Origin: a virus
Lineage: Duplodnaviria > Heunggongvirae > Uroviricota > Caudoviricetes
Virus record (IMG/VR): IMGVR_UViG_3300045988_134234
Location: 1-55,008 of that record
Length of the DNA: 55,008 nt
Direction: 5' to 3' (one strand)
This document shows, piece by piece, positions 1,830 to 45,462 of the stretch. Under the pieces are notes generated by a model. It ran no database searches, had not been told where the DNA came from, and saw only the letters and a list, made by a program, of their open reading frames with translations. A program made the position numbers and the translations under genes. How positions within the stretch are numbered: the first letter of the stretch is position 1; every line of letters starts with the position of its first letter.

Positions 1830-2450
1830 ATGAAGGATGGTTTTGTGAAGTTAAGGGTTTTGGGAGCAGTGCTCGCGGTTATATTGGGGGGAGTTTCTCT
1901 TAATGCTGCCTATGCAGGCGCGTTACCTGCAAAGTATGAGGCTGGACTGAAGGTATTGCGGGACTATAAAACCGATAGACCTGATGAATTTATAGACTTT
2001 TGCGAAAAAGAAAATATCACGCTGCAACCGGTTGAACCGGGGTTTACAGGAAAGGGCGATTTCTGTTTGTTTGCGTATTCAGCAGACCGATTAGACAAGG
2101 CTATACGCAAGGCTGGCTATTCCACCAAAGACACTATGACAGCGTTAAGTAAAAGCTGGATGCAGTTTCAAGTTTATAGCCGGGAAGGAATGGGGGAGCT
2201 GTTGCAGCCGTTGTATGCTCTAGCATTGGTGCCGGAAGGTCAGCAGTTTCTGATCAAGAAAGGGTTCATGAGGGAGGAAGATGTAGCTGGTTTCGATGCC
2301 ATCGTTGCCTATGAAAAACAACTCAAGGAACAGCGCAATAAAAAACCATCTGCCTCATGCGTGCAAAGCAAAACAGCAGAATACAGCGCAGTGGCTGGGC
2401 CTTTAGCCCCACAAATGGCAGAGCAATGGTGTAAACAATACGGGCAATAA
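1830..2450 (+). CDS. secreted protein with N-terminal signal peptide
   Basis: Internal ATG of ORF 1695..2450; hydrophobic signal VKLRVLGAVLAVILGGVSLNAAYA; AT-rich upstream region. Confidence 0.5.
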   Translation: MKDGFVKLRVLGAVLAVILGGVSLNAAYAGALPAKYEAGLKVLRDYKTDRPDEFIDFCEKENITLQPVEPGFTGKGDFCLFAYSADRLDKAIRKAGYSTKDTMTALSKSWMQFQVYSREGMGELLQPLYALALVPEGQQFLIKKGFMREEDVAGFDAIVAYEKQLKEQRNKKPSASCVQSKTAEYSAVAGPLAPQMAEQWCKQYGQ

Positions 2451-2470
2451 GTTACGCAGCGGAGGCAGAA

Positions 2471-2863
2471 TTGAAAAGATTAGCTATTGCTTTATTGGCA
2501 GCTTTCCCTTTGATCGCTCACGCCGGGAATTTACAAGTGAAGTGCGGTAGGTTTGATATAAAAATCTATCCGAACGCCATATTTCTGAATGGGAATAAGG
2601 TCGATAACGCGCACCGGAAAACTGAATCTGACGTAATGAGCTATGTGTTCCAGGAGTATGCCGAGATGGGGGGAACTTACACGTTGTACTCGCTGGATGT
2701 TCCTTCTCGTGGTGATATGACGTTATCTCATCAATGGCAGAATGCCGATGGCGAAGCTCTGCGCGAGGTTAAAACAGAAAAATGTGGCACTTTCCATTCT
2801 TTTAAAGGGAAAGCGCCCAATGTTAAATCTACGCTTGAAAAACAGCGTGCTGGTGAGCTTTAA
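2471..2863 (+). CDS. small secreted protein with signal peptide
   Basis: MKRLAIALLAAFPLIAHA signal-like N-terminus; follows previous gene by about 20 nt. Confidence 0.5.
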   Translation: MKRLAIALLAAFPLIAHAGNLQVKCGRFDIKIYPNAIFLNGNKVDNAHRKTESDVMSYVFQEYAEMGGTYTLYSLDVPSRGDMTLSHQWQNADGEALREVKTEKCGTFHSFKGKAPNVKSTLEKQRAGEL

Positions 2864-3198
2864 GCCCCTTTAATCACGGAGATTTCGTTTCCCGCACGAT
2901 AGCGGCGGGGAACGGAACTCTCCATCAGGTCGCGAATTGCTCCCGCCTCACGCAGTTCCTCTGTCTCCCAGTATCTGTTTGTCACCAGGTCAAGGCTGGC
3001 AATGACTTTATGCCGGTCATTCGGCATTGCTTCTTTTTCAGCCATTATCATCAGTGAGAACTCTTCATCCAGTAGAATTTGATACCAGACTTTTGACAGT
3101 TCCAACTCTCTAATGAGGGTGAAGCGCCGCTCAATTGTGGCGGAAGAATAAGTGAAATCAATTTTTTTCGTGGCATACATTTTGCTGTGTCCGGTCAC
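2860..3198 (-). CDS. hypothetical protein (112 aa)
   Basis: ORF only; no motif recognised. Confidence 0.35.
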   Translation of the reverse strand: MTGHSKMYATKKIDFTYSSATIERRFTLIRELELSKVWYQILLDEEFSLMIMAEKEAMPNDRHKVIASLDLVTNRYWETEELREAGAIRDLMESSVPRRYRAGNEISVIKGA

Positions 3199-3210
3199 TT
3201 AGTAGTTAAA

Positions 3211-3229
3211 GCCCCGGCATGACCGGGGC
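3211..3229 (-). terminator. GC-rich hairpin downstream of Rha-like gene
   Basis: GCCCCGG-catga-CCGGGGC stem-loop; weak T tract; a similar hairpin follows the paralogous module at about 43979..43997. Confidence 0.3.
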
Positions 3230-3236
3230 AAATCTA

Positions 3237-4163
3237 TTAACTAACAATCCAGTCGGTCGCTGCTACATCTTCTGGCTGTAAATCAATCGCACAGATCTTG
3301 CCGTCGCGAATGGTGCGCCAGTTTTTCCGTGAGCCTCTTTCGGGCCATACCCAGACACTTTCAGGCCAGGATGCTCGACGGCATACGGTTGCATACCCTG
3401 TTTTAATCTTCTCTCTGGCGGTATGCAACGACAGGTTTGCCTTTGGACTTTCAGGCACAGGATGGTGAATGGCCTGAAATAGCCCCATCCTGGGATGATA
3501 CCAGCGTTTGTTACGTGGTTCTGCCTCCGACATAACCTGCTTAAAGGCTTTCCGGAAGGGGGCCAGGGCCACAATGGAGCGTCTCGCGAGCAAACCATCG
3601 GGAGTTAAAAACTCATGTGTATCGGTGGGAATCCGATACGCATTGACCAGGTTACGGCATTTGGCTTCAGTCAGGCCGCATTTCGCCGCTAACTGGCGGT
3701 AGCCAATGTAGCCTTCCGGAATATTGCCTTTCTTTATTTGCTCGACGGTTTCAGCGACTTTGGACACTTGTGCCGATACTTCGGCTACCTGGGCATTAAC
3801 GGCGTTGATCCGGCGTTCATGCTCAAGATGCATTTGCGCCATTTCGGCCAGGATTTCGGCTTTTGATTTTAACGGTCCCCTGGCATTCTCCAGTTCGCGC
3901 CAGCGGTCCACCAGCCGGGCGGTGAATTCGGGAGAGAGCTGCGCGACGACAATGATGCTATCGCGCTTGCCTTGCTCGCCTTCGAAGACGTAATAGCTCG
4001 CCGGGCGGCCTGCGGTGGGCTTTTCCTCAATTTGAGGAAAAGATATTACGCCCCGTTCCGCCAAGTGTTCAATGGTGCGTTTAACGTTATCAGGGCGCTT
4101 TCCTACCAGTTCCGCGATCTCAATGCTGGTCATTGTCGCTTTTTGAGAGATGGACAGATTCAT
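3237..4163 (-). CDS. Rha-family phage regulatory/antirepressor-like protein with DUF2829-like C-terminal domain
   Basis: N-terminus IEIAELVGKRPDNVKRTIEHL matches recalled Rha signature (IAE.FGK.H.NV.R.I..L); C-terminal 65 aa (CRRASW...VWVWPE...ATDWIVS) resembles the separate 70-aa ORF at 44006..44218. Confidence 0.6.
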   Translation of the reverse strand: MNLSISQKATMTSIEIAELVGKRPDNVKRTIEHLAERGVISFPQIEEKPTAGRPASYYVFEGEQGKRDSIIVVAQLSPEFTARLVDRWRELENARGPLKSKAEILAEMAQMHLEHERRINAVNAQVAEVSAQVSKVAETVEQIKKGNIPEGYIGYRQLAAKCGLTEAKCRNLVNAYRIPTDTHEFLTPDGLLARRSIVALAPFRKAFKQVMSEAEPRNKRWYHPRMGLFQAIHHPVPESPKANLSLHTAREKIKTGYATVCRRASWPESVWVWPERGSRKNWRTIRDGKICAIDLQPEDVAATDWIVS

Positions 4164-4378
4164 CAGTGCACCTCCACGCAGTTCATTGGCAGATTCCAGT
4201 AATTGAGGATCTCCATCGCATCAAGAGTGAAGCGAGCAGCAAAAATGCAGGGTTCTTCGGGAAGGTATGAGCGCGCCTCTGCTTCGGTAGCAGCCATTAC
4301 GCAGATATAAAGGTGTTTTTGGCAGGAATAGAAACGCCAGATAAATTCAGAATGAGTTGGGGTAGGGATAGTAGCCAT
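4163..4378 (-). CDS. small protein upstream of Rha-like gene (Icd/Ash-like position)
   Basis: 71 aa, AAGGAGG RBS, start overlaps stop of downstream gene; paralog at 44910..45134 shares EFIWRF...AATE.EARS motif. Confidence 0.5.
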   Translation of the reverse strand: MATIPTPTHSEFIWRFYSCQKHLYICVMAATEAEARSYLPEEPCIFAARFTLDAMEILNYWNLPMNCVEVH

Positions 4379-4379
4379 A

Positions 4380-4640
4380 TTGGCAGCCTCCTTTGACTAA
4401 GTTAAGGAGCTACCGCGTGAGGTTCCAATCTCAATGGCGGTAGCACTGACTGGGTTGGAACTACCGGCGTCAAAGGGAACCGGCCTGCCTTTCGGCAGCC
4501 CAGCCAGCACTACCATTGATCTCTGAGCTAAACGCTACGTATGGCTGTGCGATGGCGTGACACAAAAAAAGACGCTTTCGGCGTCTGTGTCGCCTTTGAC
4601 ATTATCCGGGGTTCCAATCCCGGCACCCGTTTTTCTAAGG
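4380..4640 (-). ncRNA. structured leader / candidate antisense-regulatory RNA (C4-like hypothesis)
   Basis: About 260 nt untranslated leader with repeated GATTGGAACC elements and a complementary GTTCCAACC element, multiple hairpins, and an anti-SD hairpin (CTCCTT...AAGGAG) sequestering the RBS of the 71-aa gene. Confidence 0.25.
4562..4586 (-). terminator. rho-independent terminator (minus strand)
   Basis: GACGC-cgaaa-GCGTC hairpin followed by T7 on minus strand. Confidence 0.55.
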
Positions 4641-4690
4641 TGCCGTAGAAATATACCTCACGATAATGCCAGGGCGCAACAGTCAGTATT

Positions 4691-5179: not shown

Positions 5180-5202
5180 TGTTAGAAAATTAATTTATTA
5201 AT
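5180..5202. promoter_or_regulatory. operator-like motif TGTTAGAAAATTAATTTATTAA
   Basis: Member of a dispersed motif family (more than 12 copies) located at promoter regions. Confidence 0.4.
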
Positions 5203-5765
5203 TCAGTCACCATCTGATACAACGTCATTTCATCAGCATTGTGCCGCCTGAAATCTGCTTTGCCGCCTATTTTTCCATCAGCATGAACAGGAACCAACCA
5301 GGGGTATTGCTCGCGGATCTCTGCTGGCGCTGCGTGTTGATGGTGCCATTTACACAAAGGGAGGACGTATTTATGCGCGTTCTCTGCTGTTCTCCCGAAG
5401 ATGTGGTGCAGGGATACCACAGGGCTATGCTGTCCGTGCATATGGCAGGCAATGCAGGGGAGAGCACCGATGGCAGTTTGTATCCGGCGCTCATCTGCTG
5501 TGAGTGTTCTGCCTTTCAGGCCGCGTGACGCGCGAGTTTTTTTGACAGGAGCAGAAGCGGCCTTCTCTTTTCTTCGCTGTTCATATTGCTTCGCTTTTTC
5601 AATTTTCTTTTGCCGATATTCAGGCGATGCGGCTTTTTCTCGCGCACGCTGCTGCTGGCGTTGAGCTTGCTGAAGACGCTTTGCCCTTTGTTCCTCCCGC
5701 CATTTCGGATCAGCCAGTTTTTGCAGGGCTTTTTGTGTCTGTTTCTCCCAATAGCTTTGCTTCAT
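5190..5765 (-). CDS. HNH-family nuclease with basic N-terminal region (P1 Ref-like)
   Basis: C-terminal C..C / HH...N..H...LCKWHH HNH-like motif; Lys/Arg/Gln-rich low-complexity N-terminus; ATG chosen at Met15 of ORF 5190..5807 (a TTG at 5807 is the alternative); operator palindrome immediately upstream. Confidence 0.5.
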   Translation of the reverse strand: MKQSYWEKQTQKALQKLADPKWREEQRAKRLQQAQRQQQRAREKAASPEYRQKKIEKAKQYEQRRKEKAASAPVKKTRASRGLKGRTLTADERRIQTAIGALPCIACHMHGQHSPVVSLHHIFGRTAENAHKYVLPLCKWHHQHAAPAEIREQYPWLVPVHADGKIGGKADFRRHNADEMTLYQMVTELIN

Positions 5766-5810
5766 AGAAATACCCGGTTTGTCTACATCGCCGCTATGGT
5801 TGATCAAATG

Positions 5811-5840
5811 TGTTAGAAAATCAAAATTGATTTTCTAACA
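5811..5840. promoter_or_regulatory. 30-bp near-perfect palindromic operator TGTTAGAAAATCAAA/ATTGATTTTCTAACA
   Basis: Inverted pair of the dispersed motif between divergent Ref-like gene and the 5882.. operon. Confidence 0.6.
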
Positions 5841-5881
5841 CAAAATGAAGATACTTTTTTCAGACGCTATATCAGGAGGTC

Positions 5882-8498: not shown

Positions 8499-9205
8499 AA
8501 TTTTCCAAATTTTCTGAGTTGGTGAATCGTATTTTGTCCAACAACCACAGCCATCGTCGCGATATGGATGTAACGATCGTTGTTCATTCGCCTGGCAGCA
8601 TTGGTTCAACACCTTCAGTTGAGGTTCAGTCAATTCACGCTGGTTTTGATTGGGATTCCGGGAAAGTGCTGATTTTCCCAGCACAGCCACTGACCACGCT
8701 AACACCAGAACAGATTACTGATATCACGGATAGTGTGCGCAAAGGTCAGTCTTGGCACGCATATCAGGAATACAAGAAGCATAAAGAGCAGTTGGAAAAA
8801 TTGTCGATTGAACTGGATGCTGCAAGACGGCGCATTACAGAACTGGAGAGCGAACGCGCGGTGCTGGCGGCGGAGAATGCGGAGCTGAAGTCTGTGCACC
8901 CTCAACCATTCGGAGCTGAGATGATGAAGGCTCTTGATGCGTATGAGAAGCATCAGGATGAAGTGCCAGAGACAGGAATGCTCAATGCATTTTTCATCTT
9001 GCGCGACAGCATCCGTGTTGAAACCCCAGCCACCGACTCTTTCCTGTCTGAAGTACGGGCGCAGGGGGTGGATATGGCTCGTAACGCGATGATTGATTTT
9101 GTTGATGGTGAAGTTGGGCCAAACAAGAACGTTCCGGGGCTGATTAGAGGCGCAGAGATATGCGTAAGTATTGCTGAACAGCTTCGCAAAGGAGGCAACC
9201 AGTGA
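8495..9205 (+). CDS. hypothetical coiled-coil protein (Ea22-like region)
   Basis: Internal ATG of ORF 8444..9205 overlapping upstream stop (ATGA); [17 protein letters not shown] coiled coil. Confidence 0.45.
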
Positions 9206-24657: not shown

Positions 24658-24691
24658 CTAACTTTAAATAATGCCAATTATTTAAAGTTAG
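24658..24691. other. lox-like recombination site (13-bp inverted arms, 8-bp spacer)
   Basis: CTAACTTTAAATA-ATGCCAAT-TATTTAAAGTTAG; arms resemble loxP arm ATAACTTCGTATA; about 150 bp upstream of cre-like start. Confidence 0.6.
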
Positions 24692-25964: not shown

Positions 25965-27471
25965 AAATGTCAATATCAGGAATATCCACTTCTGCCAACA
26001 CCTGATCGCGGAATGTTGCGAGTTCTGCGCCAATGTCTTCATTAGCAGGCACGTAATCCACCAGCATAGTGAAGCAGTAGGTATCCCATCTGTCCGGCGA
26101 CTTGATGTTTAACTTCTGCCGCATGTGCTCCTTGCGCATCATCGCTACCTTCCCTTCTTCGTTAAGCATATACGGGATTTTTGATGCCTGATCTGCGGTT
26201 TTGGGGTCACTATCGATACGCATACGCCCGGATTTAATGGCATCCCCTGCCATAATATTGGCGTAAGCACGCTGATTGACAAAGCGTTCTCTGTCTCTTA
26301 GCGCAAACATAGGCTTACCCCAACGGATGCGAACGGGATTAGCACCACGGCGGACAAGCTGCGCACACGTATCTGAACCAAAGCCATCAGCATCCACAGC
26401 AATGGTGATGTTCGGGTATTTATCAGGAGTGCATTCGTTATAGATAAAGTCGGCAAAAGCCAACGGGTCCATAGTGCCTGACATCTCCAGTATCTTAAAG
26501 TTCACAACGCGTCGTTTCTCACGATAACCGGATACTTTGCATATATTGAGCACCGATTTGTCGCGACCATTACCGACGTCAGCGGTCGCTACCCAGCCCC
26601 AATCTTTCTCCAGCAACACTTTACGCCGTGCGGCGCGGTCGCACTCATCACGACCAAGCAAATACCCGTTAATTGCACGCGGGAACTGGCCCAGCACCTT
26701 AACCATGTACTCCAGCGAATCCCTGCCGCCGTACTCCAGCAATTTCTCACGAATAAAGCTCGGTTCAACGAATGGTGATTCTTCAGAGTTAAGGACTATT
26801 GCCGTCCAGACACCTTCCGGATTGCCTTCTGCCTTTGCCCTTGAATGGTGAGATTCATAAAAGTAACCGCTTGGACGCGTAGGCTGGGAAAGCATGAGCA
26901 TACGGTTATCTTTCTGCGTTAACGCCCCCGTCATGACGTTAATCGCCTTATCGGATATGCCCGATGCTTCATCAAGGATTAGCAGTAAATGCTCCGCGTG
27001 CTCCCCCGCCAGTGCCTCTTCGTTACCGAGTCGATAACCTTTACAGAGCACTTCCCATATCCCTTTACGGGAACGCTCATAAAACATGGTGTCAGACAGG
27101 ACAAAATAGGTCTGTAACCAGCCGTGGCGCTTAACAGCATTCGCCCAAAACTGTTTCACGTATTTGAATACGCCTGTTTTTACCTGGCCTATTTTGTTCG
27201 CAACAATAATGACGCGGGCGTCGGGGAACAGGATCATAAAAATTAGTAGCAACATCGCGGTAAGGGACGACTTACCCGTTCCGTGTCCGGACGTAACGGT
27301 CGTCCTGCTCCCCGTCTCCTGCACTGACTGAATGATCTGCTGCTGCTGGTGGGAGGGGAACATCCCAAAAATATCGACAACCGCTTGGGTAAAGTTGTAT
27401 CGATACCTGATAACCATATCGCGCCAACGTGGATCACTGGTGACGCACTTAATCTTACGACCACCAGCCAT
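25963..27471 (-). CDS. pacB: terminase large subunit (PacB-like)
   Basis: Walker A VTSGHGTGKSS, Walker B LLLILDEAS; C-terminal nuclease-type region; 502 aa. Confidence 0.85.
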   Translation of the reverse strand: MAGGRKIKCVTSDPRWRDMVIRYRYNFTQAVVDIFGMFPSHQQQQIIQSVQETGSRTTVTSGHGTGKSSLTAMLLLIFMILFPDARVIIVANKIGQVKTGVFKYVKQFWANAVKRHGWLQTYFVLSDTMFYERSRKGIWEVLCKGYRLGNEEALAGEHAEHLLLILDEASGISDKAINVMTGALTQKDNRMLMLSQPTRPSGYFYESHHSRAKAEGNPEGVWTAIVLNSEESPFVEPSFIREKLLEYGGRDSLEYMVKVLGQFPRAINGYLLGRDECDRAARRKVLLEKDWGWVATADVGNGRDKSVLNICKVSGYREKRRVVNFKILEMSGTMDPLAFADFIYNECTPDKYPNITIAVDADGFGSDTCAQLVRRGANPVRIRWGKPMFALRDRERFVNQRAYANIMAGDAIKSGRMRIDSDPKTADQASKIPYMLNEEGKVAMMRKEHMRQKLNIKSPDRWDTYCFTMLVDYVPANEDIGAELATFRDQVLAEVDIPDIDI

Positions 27472-28835
27472 TAGTCATCCTCCGGCTGGTCTATCGCAAT
27501 CTCGTCATCCACAGCATCAAAACCGGTATCCCCCGCGTCATAATCACCGTAGATATCAGCCGTGGCGGAAGGGTCTATATTCAGGTCTTCATCATTGGCC
27601 TCAAATTCACCGGCTTTACGTTCTCCGTTCCGGTCGTAATCCCCCATCCCAAGCCTATCAACGATTTTCGCTACTTCAGCCCGGCGTTGTGCAAGCCATT
27701 GTGGGAGTCCAGCTTGTTGCTCGGCAAACTGCTTCGCCTCTTTATCCAGTTGCTCATCATCAACATCGTTAACGTCAGAAACCGGAGGCTCCAGAAGTGA
27801 GATCGCTTTTGCCGCTCGTGCCGCCAGGATAGCCGGGACACTGACGCCCTGCCGCTCGATATATTCAGCAACACCTATATCATCCAGCTCCTCGCGCTCA
27901 CGCATACGTATAGCGGCGGCGATAACTCTGGCGGCGCGTGCGTCAGCGCCAATGCGATACTCAATCTCCTTGCCACGCTGCTCGGCTTGTAGGCGGGCAA
28001 TCGCCAGTTTTTCTCTGGCCTCAGCCTCCCTGAATGCCTGCTGACGCGCGCCCTGCGCAAGTTTTTCATCCCCCTGGCGTAGCTTCTGCTCGTTCTGATA
28101 GATGGCTGCCAGCCTGGTGATAAAGTCATTCATGTAGTAGGCCGCATCGCTGATCAGTCCGAGAAGACGCTGCCCTGGGTGCATCCCCTCTGGCTGTGTA
28201 TCACCGAGGGCGTCAATCTCTTCCTGTAGTCGCTCCGCTTCCTGGTCAACGATAGCCTGATACTGAATTGCTCGTTCCTGCGCCATCTGTATCGCAAGTC
28301 GTAAATGTTCAGTCGCGCCGTTCTTCATCATCTCACGGGCGACGTTGGTGGCTGGCAAAGTGGCGCTTTGAGCTGATGAATCAGGGATCATTTGCAATGA
28401 TCCCTTGTTTCGTTGGGCTTTTTCGCTGCTTTTAGGGATCATTTCTCCAATTTCATCACAAAATGATCCCTTCACATCCTTGTGTATCTTGCTGTTATTG
28501 CTTGACTTTTCTTTGTGATCCGCATTTTGTTTTTGCGGCATGGCGCGGAACCGTCCACCAGCTAACGATTTGTCAGTTTTTGTAAATTCTGTGCTTTTAT
28601 CAGCCTTTTTTTGCTCTTTTTTTGAGCCGGTGGCGCAGCTTTTTGCGCGCTGTTTTGTACTTTTCCCGGCAGCCTTAGCTTTCGCCTTAACCTCATTTTT
28701 TTTCATATTGAGATGCTTTCTGGCGGTGTTAAAGCTGAGGTCATGCTGCTCGCAATATTCTTTTATGGTGATCCCGGTTTCTTCTCTTAACTCCAGGAAC
28801 TTAGCTCGATGCGCTTCCCAGTTAATTAACGTCAT
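27471..28835 (-). CDS. pacA: terminase small subunit (PacA-like) containing pac-like GATC cluster
   Basis: N-terminal HTH-like (ITIKEYCEQHDLSFNTARKHL), Lys-rich region, acidic C-terminus; overlaps pacB start. Confidence 0.6.
   Translation of the reverse strand: MTLINWEAHRAKFLELREETGITIKEYCEQHDLSFNTARKHLNMKKNEVKAKAKAAGKSTKQRAKSCATGSKKEQKKADKSTEFTKTDKSLAGGRFRAMPQKQNADHKEKSSNNSKIHKDVKGSFCDEIGEMIPKSSEKAQRNKGSLQMIPDSSAQSATLPATNVAREMMKNGATEHLRLAIQMAQERAIQYQAIVDQEAERLQEEIDALGDTQPEGMHPGQRLLGLISDAAYYMNDFITRLAAIYQNEQKLRQGDEKLAQGARQQAFREAEAREKLAIARLQAEQRGKEIEYRIGADARAARVIAAAIRMREREELDDIGVAEYIERQGVSVPAILAARAAKAISLLEPPVSDVNDVDDEQLDKEAKQFAEQQAGLPQWLAQRRAEVAKIVDRLGMGDYDRNGERKAGEFEANDEDLNIDPSATADIYGDYDAGDTGFDAVDDEIAIDQPEDD
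28383..28520. promoter_or_regulatory. pac-like cluster of five GATC-containing heptamers (GGGATCA/TGATCCC)
   Basis: GATC at about 28386, 28399, 28437, 28465, 28516 arranged as inverted pairs within pacA codons about 105-150. Confidence 0.5.
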
Positions 28836-33259: not shown

Positions 33260-33289
33260 TGTTAGAAAGACAATTCTAATTTTCTAACA
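33260..33289. promoter_or_regulatory. operator-like inverted pair TGTTAGAAA-N12-TTTCTAACA
   Basis: Perfect 9-bp arms; downstream of the 402-aa gene, at the head of the non-coding tRNA island. Confidence 0.5.
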
Positions 33290-33291
33290 CA

Positions 33292-34500
33292 TTATTTCCC
33301 GTAAAGATTTTCAACTCCACCGTTCTTCTTATCCCACTCGTTCGCCCATACCCGGCAAGCATCAATTATTTCCTGACGGCGATCGCCCTGCATGAACGGA
33401 ATGCTTTCATGAAAGCTGCTTGGAATGCAGGCCACACTGAACACTGTATCAAACTCAGTCTGCTTGATTGCCTCCAACGTCTCTGGACGCATTTTCAATT
33501 CGTCGATCGGTGCATCCTTAGAGTCCATAATCCGGCGATGCAAGCGTGGAAAATCCGTTTCAAGGTACGCCATAATTTTATCTGCCAGACATTCGTCTAT
33601 GTCGGTATTCCAGTCAGTTTCGAAGCCAGGAATTCGGTAGTAAAGCGGCGTTCCCCATACTGACGGGATCACATCCATCGTCAGCAGGCGGCTGGTTCTG
33701 ATTTGCTGATGGTAATTTGCCGTCAGCAACGCTTCGCCACGTTGCCCAGTCTCCGCGACCAGACCATGCGGAAACTCATGGATATAGGCAATAGCTTCTC
33801 TTCCGTCATACATTAGCGGGAATGTCTCTGGCCTTTGCCCCATGCCACAGGCGCGATTCAGATCATGACCAAGCTCTGAACACTCTCGTTTCAATGTTTC
33901 AATAATGCTCTGCGCCGCTGCTAACTTTTTACGCAGTGTGACGAGTTCGCCTTGATACTCAACGCATTGCTGATTTAGCTTGGTTAAACGCTCTTTTAGT
34001 TCGCGACGCTCTCTTTTCAGCGTGCGGTTATCTTTCTCCGCAACATCCAGTCGTTTTGTCAGGCTTGGCGGATAGTCTTTTTTGTAACGACTCAAATCGA
34101 CTTCAGCAGATTTGCGCAGTGTATTTGCCTGCTCAAGACGCGCCTCCAGATTGCCGATCTCATTACGCATATTCGCGGCAAATTGATTAACTGCATCCCC
34201 CAGGCTTTCAACTGTCGCTGATACACCAGTGACTTGAGAAAAACGGATCAAGCCATCATTAACGGCTTGCTGATATTCCTCAAACTGATCCACCAGCTTA
34301 TTGTAATCAACTGCCCCATCATCAAGGAGCTGGTTGATTTCCGCCACCAGGTTATCTGTAGTGGCAATGACGCTCTCATGCAGTCGCTTTGACAGGTCAT
34401 CGCCCGGATTTCGTTTCTGTATAAGCGCGATTTGTGTCCGCAGTGTTTCAATTGCGGTTGAGATGATCTCCAGGCTTGATGATTCTACTTGCTGACTCAT
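33292..34500 (-). CDS. hypothetical protein (402 aa), coiled-coil N-terminal half
   Basis: Monocistronic unit bracketed by operator motifs and an upstream terminator. Confidence 0.55.
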   Translation of the reverse strand: MSQQVESSSLEIISTAIETLRTQIALIQKRNPGDDLSKRLHESVIATTDNLVAEINQLLDDGAVDYNKLVDQFEEYQQAVNDGLIRFSQVTGVSATVESLGDAVNQFAANMRNEIGNLEARLEQANTLRKSAEVDLSRYKKDYPPSLTKRLDVAEKDNRTLKRERRELKERLTKLNQQCVEYQGELVTLRKKLAAAQSIIETLKRECSELGHDLNRACGMGQRPETFPLMYDGREAIAYIHEFPHGLVAETGQRGEALLTANYHQQIRTSRLLTMDVIPSVWGTPLYYRIPGFETDWNTDIDECLADKIMAYLETDFPRLHRRIMDSKDAPIDELKMRPETLEAIKQTEFDTVFSVACIPSSFHESIPFMQGDRRQEIIDACRVWANEWDKKNGGVENLYGK

Positions 34501-44005: not shown

Positions 44006-44218
44006 TCAAGTTACGATCCAATCATTACCGACTGCATCCGCCGTCGATAAATCGACTTCCCGGATCTGGTATCCATTGATACAAAACCATCCAGTAGTAG
44101 AGCTATTATCAGGCCAGACCCATACACCAACACTCCATGCTTTACGGCGGCACACTTCAGCCTGTCCTTCCCTGATTTTTTTTACCGCCTGCATGATGTC
44201 CATCACTCGCCTCCCCAA
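44006..44218 (-). CDS. DUF2829-like small protein (separate ORF; fused to Rha-like gene in the first module)
   Basis: AVKKIREGQAEVCRRKAW...VWVWP...NDWIVT parallels C-terminus of 3237..4163 product; overlaps upstream ORF by 16 nt in a different frame. Confidence 0.4.
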   Translation of the reverse strand: MGRRVMDIMQAVKKIREGQAEVCRRKAWSVGVWVWPDNSSTTGWFCINGYQIREVDLSTADAVGNDWIVT

Positions 44219-44910
44219 CCGATTACCTGGAATTGCCCCATCCTTGGGTGATACCAGCGTTTTCCTCGGTGTTCAGCCTCCGACATCATCAGGGTAAAGG
44301 CATTCATGAAGGGAGATAAGGCCACAATAGTACGACGCGACAATACCCCCTCTGGCGTCAAAAACTCATGCGTATCTGTGGGGATCCGGTAAGCGTTGAC
44401 CAGGTTGCGGCATTTGGCTTCAGTCAGGCCGCATTTCGCCGCCAACTGGCGATAGCCAATGTAGCCTTCTGGTATGTTGCCTTTCTTGATCTGCTCGACG
44501 GTTTCAGCGACCTGGCTAACCTTTGACTCAACAGCATGAAGCCGCTTTTGCTGCTGAACTGCATTCGCAGCCATTGCAGCGATCATCTCTATTTCGGTCA
44601 ACGGCTGGCGTACTTGTTCTTCCAGTTCGCGCCAGCGGTCCACCAGCCGGGCGGTGAATTCGGGAGAGAGCTGCGCGACGACGATAATGCTATCGCGCTT
44701 GCCTTGCTCGCCTTCGAAGACGTAAGCCTCAACACTACGTCGTAGTCCTAAGTTATTGATTTTTTCGAAAACCTCAATTTGAGGACGAACAATAACGCCA
44801 CCTTTGGCTAATGTCTCAATAGTGCGTTTCACATTGTCATGACGTTTTCCCACCAGCTCCGCGATCTCAATGCTGGTCATTGATGGCTTTTCGAGAATGC
44901 AGATATCCAT
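44203..44910 (-). CDS. Rha-family regulatory/antirepressor-like protein (paralog of 3237..4163)
   Basis: IEIAELVGKRHDNVKRTIETL; long stretches identical to the first module. Confidence 0.6.
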   Translation of the reverse strand: MDICILEKPSMTSIEIAELVGKRHDNVKRTIETLAKGGVIVRPQIEVFEKINNLGLRRSVEAYVFEGEQGKRDSIIVVAQLSPEFTARLVDRWRELEEQVRQPLTEIEMIAAMAANAVQQQKRLHAVESKVSQVAETVEQIKKGNIPEGYIGYRQLAAKCGLTEAKCRNLVNAYRIPTDTHEFLTPEGVLSRRTIVALSPFMNAFTLMMSEAEHRGKRWYHPRMGQFQVIGWGGE

Positions 44911-45134
44911 CAGTGAGCCTCCGCAATGCCGGGATTGGTAATATTGCGATACCAGGGATTGGTGTTTGGTTGTGGGGAAGTAGAGAAACGACCAGTGAGA
45001 ACGCCATACTGATCAGGGATCAGAGAACGGGCTTCTTTTTCAGTTGCGGCAATTGCGAAGTGATCGCAGTGTTTTTGCAGGGAGTGAAAACGCCAGATGA
45101 ATTCTGGACGTGAGCAAGGATTGGCATTAACCAT
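44910..45134 (-). CDS. small protein (paralog of 4163..4378)
   Basis: EFIWRFHSLQKH...AIAATEKEARS. Confidence 0.5.
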   Translation of the reverse strand: MVNANPCSRPEFIWRFHSLQKHCDHFAIAATEKEARSLIPDQYGVLTGRFSTSPQPNTNPWYRNITNPGIAEAH

Positions 45135-45159: not shown

Positions 45160-45360
45160 CAACCTGCGACCCGCTGTCAAACAGGTGGCAGGACGTGACA
45201 GGGTTGACAGACTGGCACTTACGAAACCAGCAGGCCGAAGCCTCCCCATCACGCCCCACCATAATTCGGGCGTAACGTGGTTTTACGGACACAAAAATAC
45301 CGCAATATCGGAAATGTGCGGTTGTCCGCGTAAGTATTCAGGCTGTCAAACCTGGTCGCA
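45160..45360. repeat. TGTCAAAC / GTTGACAG short repeats in leader region
   Basis: CGCTGTCAAACAGG, GGGTTGACAGACTGG, GGCTGTCAAACCTGG: two direct copies plus one complementary copy. Confidence 0.4.
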
Positions 45361-45462
45361 GAATTTGCTACGACGGCATGAATATAAGCCTGAACATTAG
45401 AAAGATCAACAGAATTTTTATCAAATGCTGTTTTTTAGTGACAATGTAAATCATACATTCTT

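Follow-up and report, generated by a model that had tools for sequence, protein, structure and literature searches.

Short segments shared by the ant genes of two immI-type modules in a D6-like phage-plasmid probably reflect repeated exchange between the loci

Two immI-type modules in a D6-like phage-plasmid

The stretch of DNA analysed here (the window; 55,008 nucleotides, positions 1 to 55,008 of the IMG/VR virus record IMGVR_UViG_3300045988_134234) is part of a D6-like, P1-related phage-plasmid and carries two Rha-like genes, for which an original prediction made from the sequence had claimed near-identical DNA patches, gene conversion and a substrate for rearrangement. Phage D6 is a relative of P1 whose prophage is kept as a circular plasmid. 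Both loci match Escherichia phage D6 at 90-93% DNA identity, and the window also matches many non-mobilizable plasmids of ~90 kb from Escherichia and Salmonella, the closest relative being the E. marmotae plasmid NZ_CP056699.1, which is 99.4% identical at the first locus (locus A) and colinear across the whole window. The original prediction had overlooked that each Rha-like gene is the ant gene of a complete C4-icd-ant immunity module; the modules, at loci A and B, are paralogous and both on the minus strand.

Each module comprises a leader, a C4 antisense RNA, an icd-like open reading frame (ORF) and, as its last major gene, a Rha-type ant. At locus A, ant-A (3237..4163, minus strand) encodes 308 amino acids and its D6 ortholog, orf82, is annotated as anti-repressor; at locus B, ant-B (44203..44910, minus strand) encodes 235 amino acids and is orthologous to D6 orf18, the corresponding icd/ant pairs being annotated in D6 as orf83/orf82 and orf19/orf18. 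The N-terminal Phage_pRha domain was found above the gathering score in both Ant proteins over profile positions 1-91 of 91 (PF09669, 30.6 bits for ant-A and 36.7 bits for ant-B against a cutoff of 29.9), and both match PHROG 63, named 'anti-repressor Ant' (E 1e-62 and 2e-48, respectively). The name of this family, the D6 annotation and the position of the genes point to both products as putative antirepressors. The C-terminal two thirds of the Ant proteins, comprising a central helix, a patch 1 domain and a tail, matched no Pfam family.

The icd-like genes of locus A (4163..4378, minus strand) and locus B (44910..45134, minus strand) encode 71 and 74 amino acids, match PHROG 1426 (E 4e-41 and 6e-39) as well as their D6 relatives, and end in a stop codon that overlaps the start of the ant gene in the sequence TGATG (4161-4165 at locus A and 44908-44912 at locus B). 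The C4 antisense RNAs were detected at 4433..4520 and 45181..45266 (both minus strand; Rfam RF01695, 77.1 and 69.6 bits against a gathering score of 45). The leader of locus A contains an isrK-like RNA element (4565..4643, minus strand; RF01394, 62.7 bits against a gathering score of 50) and that of locus B the a1/b1 target element of C4 (45335..45387, minus strand; RF03163, 55.2 bits against a gathering score of 46.7). RF03163 was matched at locus B alone, the isrK-like element taking the equivalent place at locus A, so that each module carries a different leader element, an Hfq-binding type of RNA at the one and c4-a1b1 at the other. The leaders and C4 regions of the two loci barely align with each other. 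Taken as a pair, the modules suggest two independently controlled antisense circuits.

Alternation of shared patches and diverged segments

Self-comparison of the 55-kb window by BLASTN returned a single substantial repeat, 3473-4175 versus 44226-44922, in direct orientation and with 74.3% identity over 729 columns, within which the limits of the patches were resolved by global and multiple alignments. Both copies have the same orientation, with the genes on the minus strand, and 40,732 bp separate them, in keeping with the distance of about 40 kb given originally. Patch 2 (3889..3993 at locus A versus 44621..44725 at locus B, minus strand) is identical at 103/105 positions (98.1%), with exact runs of 62 and 39 bp, and at locus A encodes YVFEGEQGKRDSIIVVAQLSPEFTARLVDRWRELE, the C-terminal end of the Rha domain. 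Patch 1 (3607..3758 versus 44360..44511, minus strand) is a maximal segment with 138/152 identical positions (90.8%) and exact runs of 35, 20 and 17 bp; at locus A it encodes VAETVEQIKKGNIPEGYIGYRQLAAKCGLTEAKCRNLVNAYRIPTDTHEFL, possibly a second helix-turn-helix (HTH)-like segment, for which the Pfam HTH hints are weak. Patch 3 (4099..4135 versus 44846..44882, minus strand), absent from the original prediction, is identical at 35/37 positions (94.6%) with an exact run of 25 bp and encodes MTSIEIAELVG, where the winged helix begins.

The segments next to these patches are of a different kind. The central segment (3759..3888 at locus A versus 44512..44620 at locus B, minus strand) is locus-specific, with 48 of 130 columns identical (37%) and a 21-nt indel, the ant-A version having seven codons more than that of ant-B. 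The hypervariable winged-helix cassette (3994..4098 versus 44726..44845, minus strand) agrees at 58 of 121 columns (48%) and the segment 3473-3606 at 96 of 135. The neighbouring segments are thus 37-71% identical against 98.1%, 90.8% and 94.6% in the patches, and against a uniform background of 74.3% the binomial probability of at least 103/105 matches is 2e-11 and that of at least 138/152 is 3e-7. The identity is patchy and not uniformly moderate, and the flanking DNA is clearly more diverged, as had been claimed. The patches of 93-98% identity put forward by eye were also recovered, with 101/103 for 3891-3993 and 108/116 (93.1%) for 3643-3758 (versus 44396-44511); the proposed limit at 3770 has to be given up, as it runs 12 nt into the indel and diverged stretch, 3643-3770 having only 108/128.

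Synonymous divergence in the window

Synonymous and non-synonymous changes between the two copies were separated by the Nei-Gojobori method on the codon alignment, as the proportion of synonymous differences (pS) and the non-synonymous divergence (dN). Patch 2 showed a pS of 0.118 with a dN of 0.025, patch 1 a pS of 0.455 with a dN of 0.000, and the other three segments, the flanks, a pS of 0.61-0.80. Only 3 of the ~25 synonymous sites of patch 2 were changed, against a proportion of ~0.67 in the flanks (P 2e-8), and amino-acid constraint does not explain this depression. The signal from patch 1 was much weaker, with 17 of ~37 synonymous sites changed (P 0.007), and is only mildly unusual in the window alone. 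Much of the patch 1 identity in the window is explained by its complete protein conservation, which calls for caution in reading it as conversion.

A gene pool common to both loci

In a comparison with related genomes, a check that the original prediction had proposed, we aligned 28 locus sequences from the window and 13 D6-like genomes, namely D6 and plasmids of E. marmotae, E. coli and Salmonella, and the same patch pattern was found in 14/14. The sites that differ consistently between loci (fixed) and those polymorphic at both (shared) were distributed very unevenly along the modules. Patch 2 held 0 fixed and 11 shared sites, patch 1 held 0 and 19 and patch 3 held 0 and 2, making 0 fixed and 32 shared in total; the respective counts were 56 and 2 in the central segment, 29 and 3 in the shared part of the C-terminal region, and 98 and 1 in icd plus leader, which differ by 44% between the loci. 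The cassette had 3 fixed and 37 shared sites. Diversity within a locus was 5% in the central segment and 5-9% in the patches. The mean pS between loci was 0.31 and 0.34 in the two large patches, equal to the pS of 0.18-0.31 within a locus, whereas in the flanks it was 0.62-0.78 between loci against 0.05-0.42 within them.

Shared polymorphism by itself was rejected as proof of exchange, because dense polymorphism at third positions gives many chance overlaps and lets parallel mutation produce shared sites, and for this reason the linkage phase was examined too. For shared sites lying near each other and correlated at |r| of at least 0.3 in both loci, the phase agreed between the loci in 18/22 site pairs of patch 2 and 19/20 of patch 1 (37/42 together). 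Moreover, the complete 105-nt haplotype of patch 2 is identical at locus A of CP032875 and locus B of AP019805. The inference of exchange rests on the lack of fixed differences, the linkage phase, this identical haplotype and an exchange tract observed in one plasmid.

The tract was found in NZ_CP047013.1, which turned up in a search with recombinant junctions built in silico. Its locus-B ant (27232-27960), situated between the darB/CHAP genes and repL, encodes 242 amino acids instead of 235, and when painted at the 300-odd A/B-diagnostic columns it is B-type throughout except for an A-type central segment between patches 2 and 1. The allele represents a double exchange of the conversion type, both ends of which fall in the patches. 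Across PLSDB the B-type centre occurred in 109 records at one place each and the A-type centre in 93 records at 107 places; those of the extra A-type places that were sampled were additional A-type modules or the NZ_CP047013.1 allele itself. Nearer to the window, at each of the 8 positions of patch 1 where its B copy and that of its closest relative differ, the relative has the base found in its own A copy, which suggests a local A-to-B conversion in the lineage of the relative.

Some of these plasmids have further peculiarities at the modules. NZ_CP047013.1 has lost most of icd-A, all of ant-A and the downstream DNA at locus A (equivalent to 1881-4224 of the window), as read from the piece at 8590-8911. 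There are 14 extra A-type places in PLSDB, and a third, A-type icd-ant module is present elsewhere in some D6-like plasmids (CP042620.1, 79056-80254; NZ_CP172188.1, 62118-63305), the icd of the third copy in CP042620.1 beginning with a short B-like stretch.

Probable exchange between the loci and its alternatives

We consider it probable, at roughly three chances in four, that the modules are ancient paralogous immI-type operons whose ant genes share their patches through repeated homologous exchange between the loci. That the modules diverged long ago is indicated by leaders that barely align, by the 44% difference in icd plus leader and by the flanking pS of 0.61-0.80. Under this explanation the patches, by encoding invariant protein cores, would keep nucleotide identity sufficient for RecA-type homologous recombination, and repeated short non-reciprocal exchanges (gene conversion) would erase the locus-specific differences within them. 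The partners may be the loci of a single plasmid or those of D6-like plasmids that reside in the same cell, and the sequence between two patches would occasionally be carried across too. The process would presumably be RecA-dependent, possibly aided by the product of a Ref-like recombination-enhancement nuclease gene (5190-5807) that adjoins locus A.

Several points weigh against this explanation or narrow it. A and B copies paired by genome were not clearly closer than those paired across genomes (permutation p 0.43 in patch 2 and 0.043 in patch 1), so that recent intramolecular conversion in the window is not demonstrated and neither is strict intragenomic concerted evolution; most exchange could take place in trans, or it could be old, its traces having later been scrambled through recombination between plasmids. 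By parallel mutation ~10-15 shared sites would be expected in patch 1, on a rough estimate that treats sites as independent. Transfer of the central segment is rare, at ~1 of 110 locus-B genes, and the 14 genomes were picked by us from BLAST lists and are partly redundant. The patch 2 pair of the window is the most similar of the 14 genomes, with 2 differences (range 2-18), and its patch 1 pair is middling, with 14 (range 4-18). What the data show is a gene pool common to both loci across the plasmid population. Of the gene conversion claimed originally, exchange between the loci is thus backed by the population data, through the lack of fixed sites, the shared haplotype, the phase and the tract, but a recent or intramolecular event in the window is not.

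The patches might instead be relics of genes that were once identical and whose intervening segments were replaced by foreign DNA, as modular mosaicism with no exchange going on now. The cassette speaks for this, as its eight deeply diverged allele classes (37-73% identity) look imported and not mutated in place, and the boundaries of phage mosaics often lie at conserved segments. We nevertheless regard it as unlikely, because the two-locus architecture is present in 14/14 genomes, so that the duplication predates the 5-9% diversification among them, and the patches have remained without a locus-specific difference despite that diversity within each locus. The icd genes, C4 RNAs and leaders are, besides, anciently diverged, and the modules were therefore not identical recently.

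Homogenisation could also have come from a third party, if each locus recombined separately with an external pool of Rha/Roi genes in other prophages. Such genes of lambdoid, Stx and APSE phages do align with patch 2 and the N-terminal region, and the third A-type module of some plasmids can be counted on the same side. These external matches are, however, only 75-78% identical, no donor above ~80% was found in the phage collection outside D6-like elements, and in the sampled genomes the A-type centre that entered locus B of NZ_CP047013.1 is otherwise confined to locus A, which makes an outside source improbable.

An account without any recombination, in which the patches are simply the most conserved protein segments and owe their DNA identity to purifying selection and codon preference, draws on the fact that both large patches encode an invariant peptide and that in patch 1 of the window, with pS still at 0.455, most of the 91% identity comes from amino-acid conservation. 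It fails to accommodate the low pS of patch 2 beside flanks that are likewise under protein constraint, the normal synonymous polymorphism of patches that carry no fixed difference between A and B, or the multi-site haplotypes and phase common to both loci and the A-type tract inside a B gene, and we hold it to be very unlikely. That the patches are nucleotide-level functional elements conserved at both loci (an RNA target, operator, internal promoter or recombination site) is conceivable in operons under antisense RNA control but scarcely credible, since the Rfam a1b1 element (45335-45387) lies in the leader and not in ant, the C4 targets known from P1 are likewise in the leader and the icd ribosome-binding region, and nearly all variation in the patches falls on every third base, as frequently as elsewhere in these plasmids, which shows that the patch nucleotides themselves are not frozen and is the signature of protein constraint and not of a DNA or RNA element.

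A hypervariable cassette between two patches

With exchange between the loci as the preferred explanation, the ant genes can be read as an ordered mosaic, which starts with a private leader peptide (the first ~10 codons), continues with patch 3, the cassette and patch 2 as a shared pool, and then passes through a private centre and the shared patch 1 to a private tail in the C-terminal third. The cassette, which covers about residues 22-61 of Ant, corresponds to the part of the Rha domain with the recognition helix and the wing and is bracketed by patches 3 and 2. Its eight allele classes among the 14 genomes, of which four were seen at A and four at B, have 37-73% nucleotide identity and are not sorted by locus, the A classes being no closer to each other than to the B classes. 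The central segment may form one long helix, at low confidence; a single-sequence AlphaFold model of Ant-B was discarded as unusable (predicted local distance difference test score 45, predicted template modelling score 0.23), only its hint of a long helix over residues 83-142 being noted.

It is tempting to see the patches not merely as permissive of cassette exchange but as recombination anchors maintained for it, by which a winged-helix specificity cassette would be shuffled between two antirepressor operons under separate antisense control and between co-resident plasmids, diversifying the targets of Ant in an immunity arms race. We put this forward as a speculative and rather doubtful extension; if true, the repressors or other targets that each Ant recognises would be diversified among D6-like phage-plasmids. 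The cassette is in any case a candidate specificity determinant.

Rearrangement potential

The DNA between the copies contains darB, three tRNAs, pacA/pacB, a c1-like repressor, a Cre-like recombinase and phd/doc, as read from colinearity with the annotated, 99%-identical relative and from Rfam, which agrees with the terminase, recombinase and tRNA island described at first. In E. coli, RecA-dependent recombination needs a minimum of ~25-30 bp of uninterrupted identity. With perfect runs of 62, 39, 35 and 25 bp the repeats exceed this minimum, and as their orientation is direct, rearrangement is physically possible.

A reciprocal crossover would yield a 40.7-kb circle with the repressor, cre, pac, phd-doc, darB and the tRNAs and without a replicon; in the closest relative no plasmid replicon is annotated within the 40.7-kb arc and repL lies outside it. 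The other circle, of ~50 kb, would retain the lysis and virion genes together with repL, the replication initiator and the partition genes, a content shown for D6 by its annotation; phd-doc, cre-lox, pac and the repressor would be missing from it. A cell deprived of both the repressor and the Phd antitoxin should die, and the products of crossover would thus be expected to be lethal or lost, so that only products of conversion would persist.

Both reciprocal hybrid junctions (B-head/A-tail and A-head/B-tail) were built in silico, and, in line with this expectation, neither was matched full-length in one piece among 72,556 PLSDB plasmids, nor was the B-head/A-tail junction found in 5,426 complete E. 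coli genomes. Apparent matches to the junctions proved to be the third A-type modules of CP042620.1 and NZ_CP172188.1 and the conversion allele of NZ_CP047013.1, and not true hybrids. The p75 deletion variant of Salmonella D6-like plasmids, the only natural one described, was considered as well and set aside, as its 15-kb loss is in the tail/baseplate region and unrelated to the repeats. The proposed substrate for rearrangement accordingly stands as far as its geometry goes, with direct repeats and perfect runs of 62 and 39 bp, but no product of deletion or excision was seen in these collections.

Relation to known systems

The immI region of P1 and P7 consists of the c4 antisense RNA, icd and ant1/ant2, with target repeats in the leader. 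The modules described here resemble it in their order and logic, with the leader target element (RF03163) at locus B, the C4 antisense RNA (RF01695 at both loci) and the small icd translationally coupled to ant, and DNA similarity to P1/P7 amounts to 85-90% in c4 and the 5' part of icd. The ant genes, which carry the Rha domain PF09669, are unmatched at the DNA level, and, unlike P1/P7, each D6-like genome has two modules whose leaders and C4 regions cannot be aligned, with an isrK-like leader at locus A instead of a detectable a1b1. Direct orthologs with 86-93% DNA identity occupy the same two loci in phage D6 (orf18/orf82) and in D6-like plasmid prophages such as pYU39_89.

The two Ant proteins share their N-terminal winged-helix domain with the Rha/Roi family (PF09669; Rha of phi80 and P22, Roi of HK97), and the Roi genes of Stx and lambdoid phages are 75-78% identical over patch 2 and the N-terminus; unlike in these relatives, ant is here placed in an immI-type operon, an arrangement specific to D6-like elements. 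The isrK-family leader upstream of an antirepressor-type gene at locus A (RF01394, 62.7 bits) recalls the IsrK-AnrP module of Gifsy-1 in Salmonella, although a C4 RNA and an icd ORF are interposed here between the isrK-like element and ant, and the likeness comes from sequence. The Gifsy-1 leader RNA has been described as controlling an antirepressor-like gene downstream of it (PMC4825925).

The exchange proposed here also compares with concerted evolution. Among bacterial paralogs this is known from tufA/tufB in Salmonella and from rRNA operons, and conserved 'linker' segments are found at the boundaries of phage mosaics. As in such paralogs, homogenised tracts stand amid diverged flanks, polymorphism extends across loci and exchange is bounded by retained homology. 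The difference is that homogenisation is limited to patches of 37-152 bp within one gene and that copies of the same genome are not closer, so that the pool seems to be population-wide and not per genome.

The phenomenon is accordingly of a known kind, namely exchange by homology between paralogous mosaic phage genes that stays within their conserved segments, and duplicated immI modules are already in the literature, a second c4/icd region having been noted in the Salmonella D6-like plasmid pYU39_89 (PMC6799933). The patchwise homogenisation of A and B, the cassette and the conversion tract find no mention in the accessible literature text on D6-like plasmids, and a literature search on gene conversion of antirepressors found nothing specific. 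The modules provide a clean and quantifiable case in which regulatory RNAs and private protein segments stay distinct while patches of 37-152 bp form one gene pool. The practical consequences are modest and no new kind of system is involved; typing or phylogeny of D6-like plasmids based on ant would be misleading in the shared segments, and short-read assemblers may mis-join at the 62-bp identity.

Other features of the loci and the window

The possibility that ant-A is a pseudogene, raised by its missing annotation in PLSDB, was dismissed, as its ORF is intact in 12/14 genomes and its RefSeq annotation is that of a Rha family regulator. It is disrupted in the other two, CP042620.1 and CP088384.1, whose longest ORFs there are 160 and 212 amino acids, and ant-B is intact in 14/14, which hints that locus A is more dispensable than locus B.

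A small ORF of 70 amino acids lies downstream of ant-B (44006..44218, minus strand) and matches PHROG 7385 (E 5e-47), as do residues 247-307 of the ant-A product. It is homologous to the last ~65 amino acids of ant-A (3237-~3440), being a separate gene at locus B and fused in frame at locus A. The ORF also gave a full-length but sub-threshold match to the Tad2-like (Thoeris anti-defence) family PF11195 (E 0.016, 16 bits against a cutoff of 25). Sequence searches of the PDB with Ant-B and the 70-residue product returned nothing meaningful.

Three palindromic or near-palindromic sequences of 34 bp were observed in the window (24658-24691, 5809-5842 and 33260-33293). The one at 24658-24691 is directly upstream of the gene for the Cre-like recombinase and has the size of a lox site. 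That at 5809-5842 abuts the start of the Ref-like gene and has a related copy at 33260-33293, and the two may be paired repressor operators. Two more short direct repeats, each of 39 bp with 87% identity, were located in the early-gene block right of locus A (7023-7061/8842-8880 and 7190-7228/9027-9065), the members of each pair being ~1.8 kb apart.

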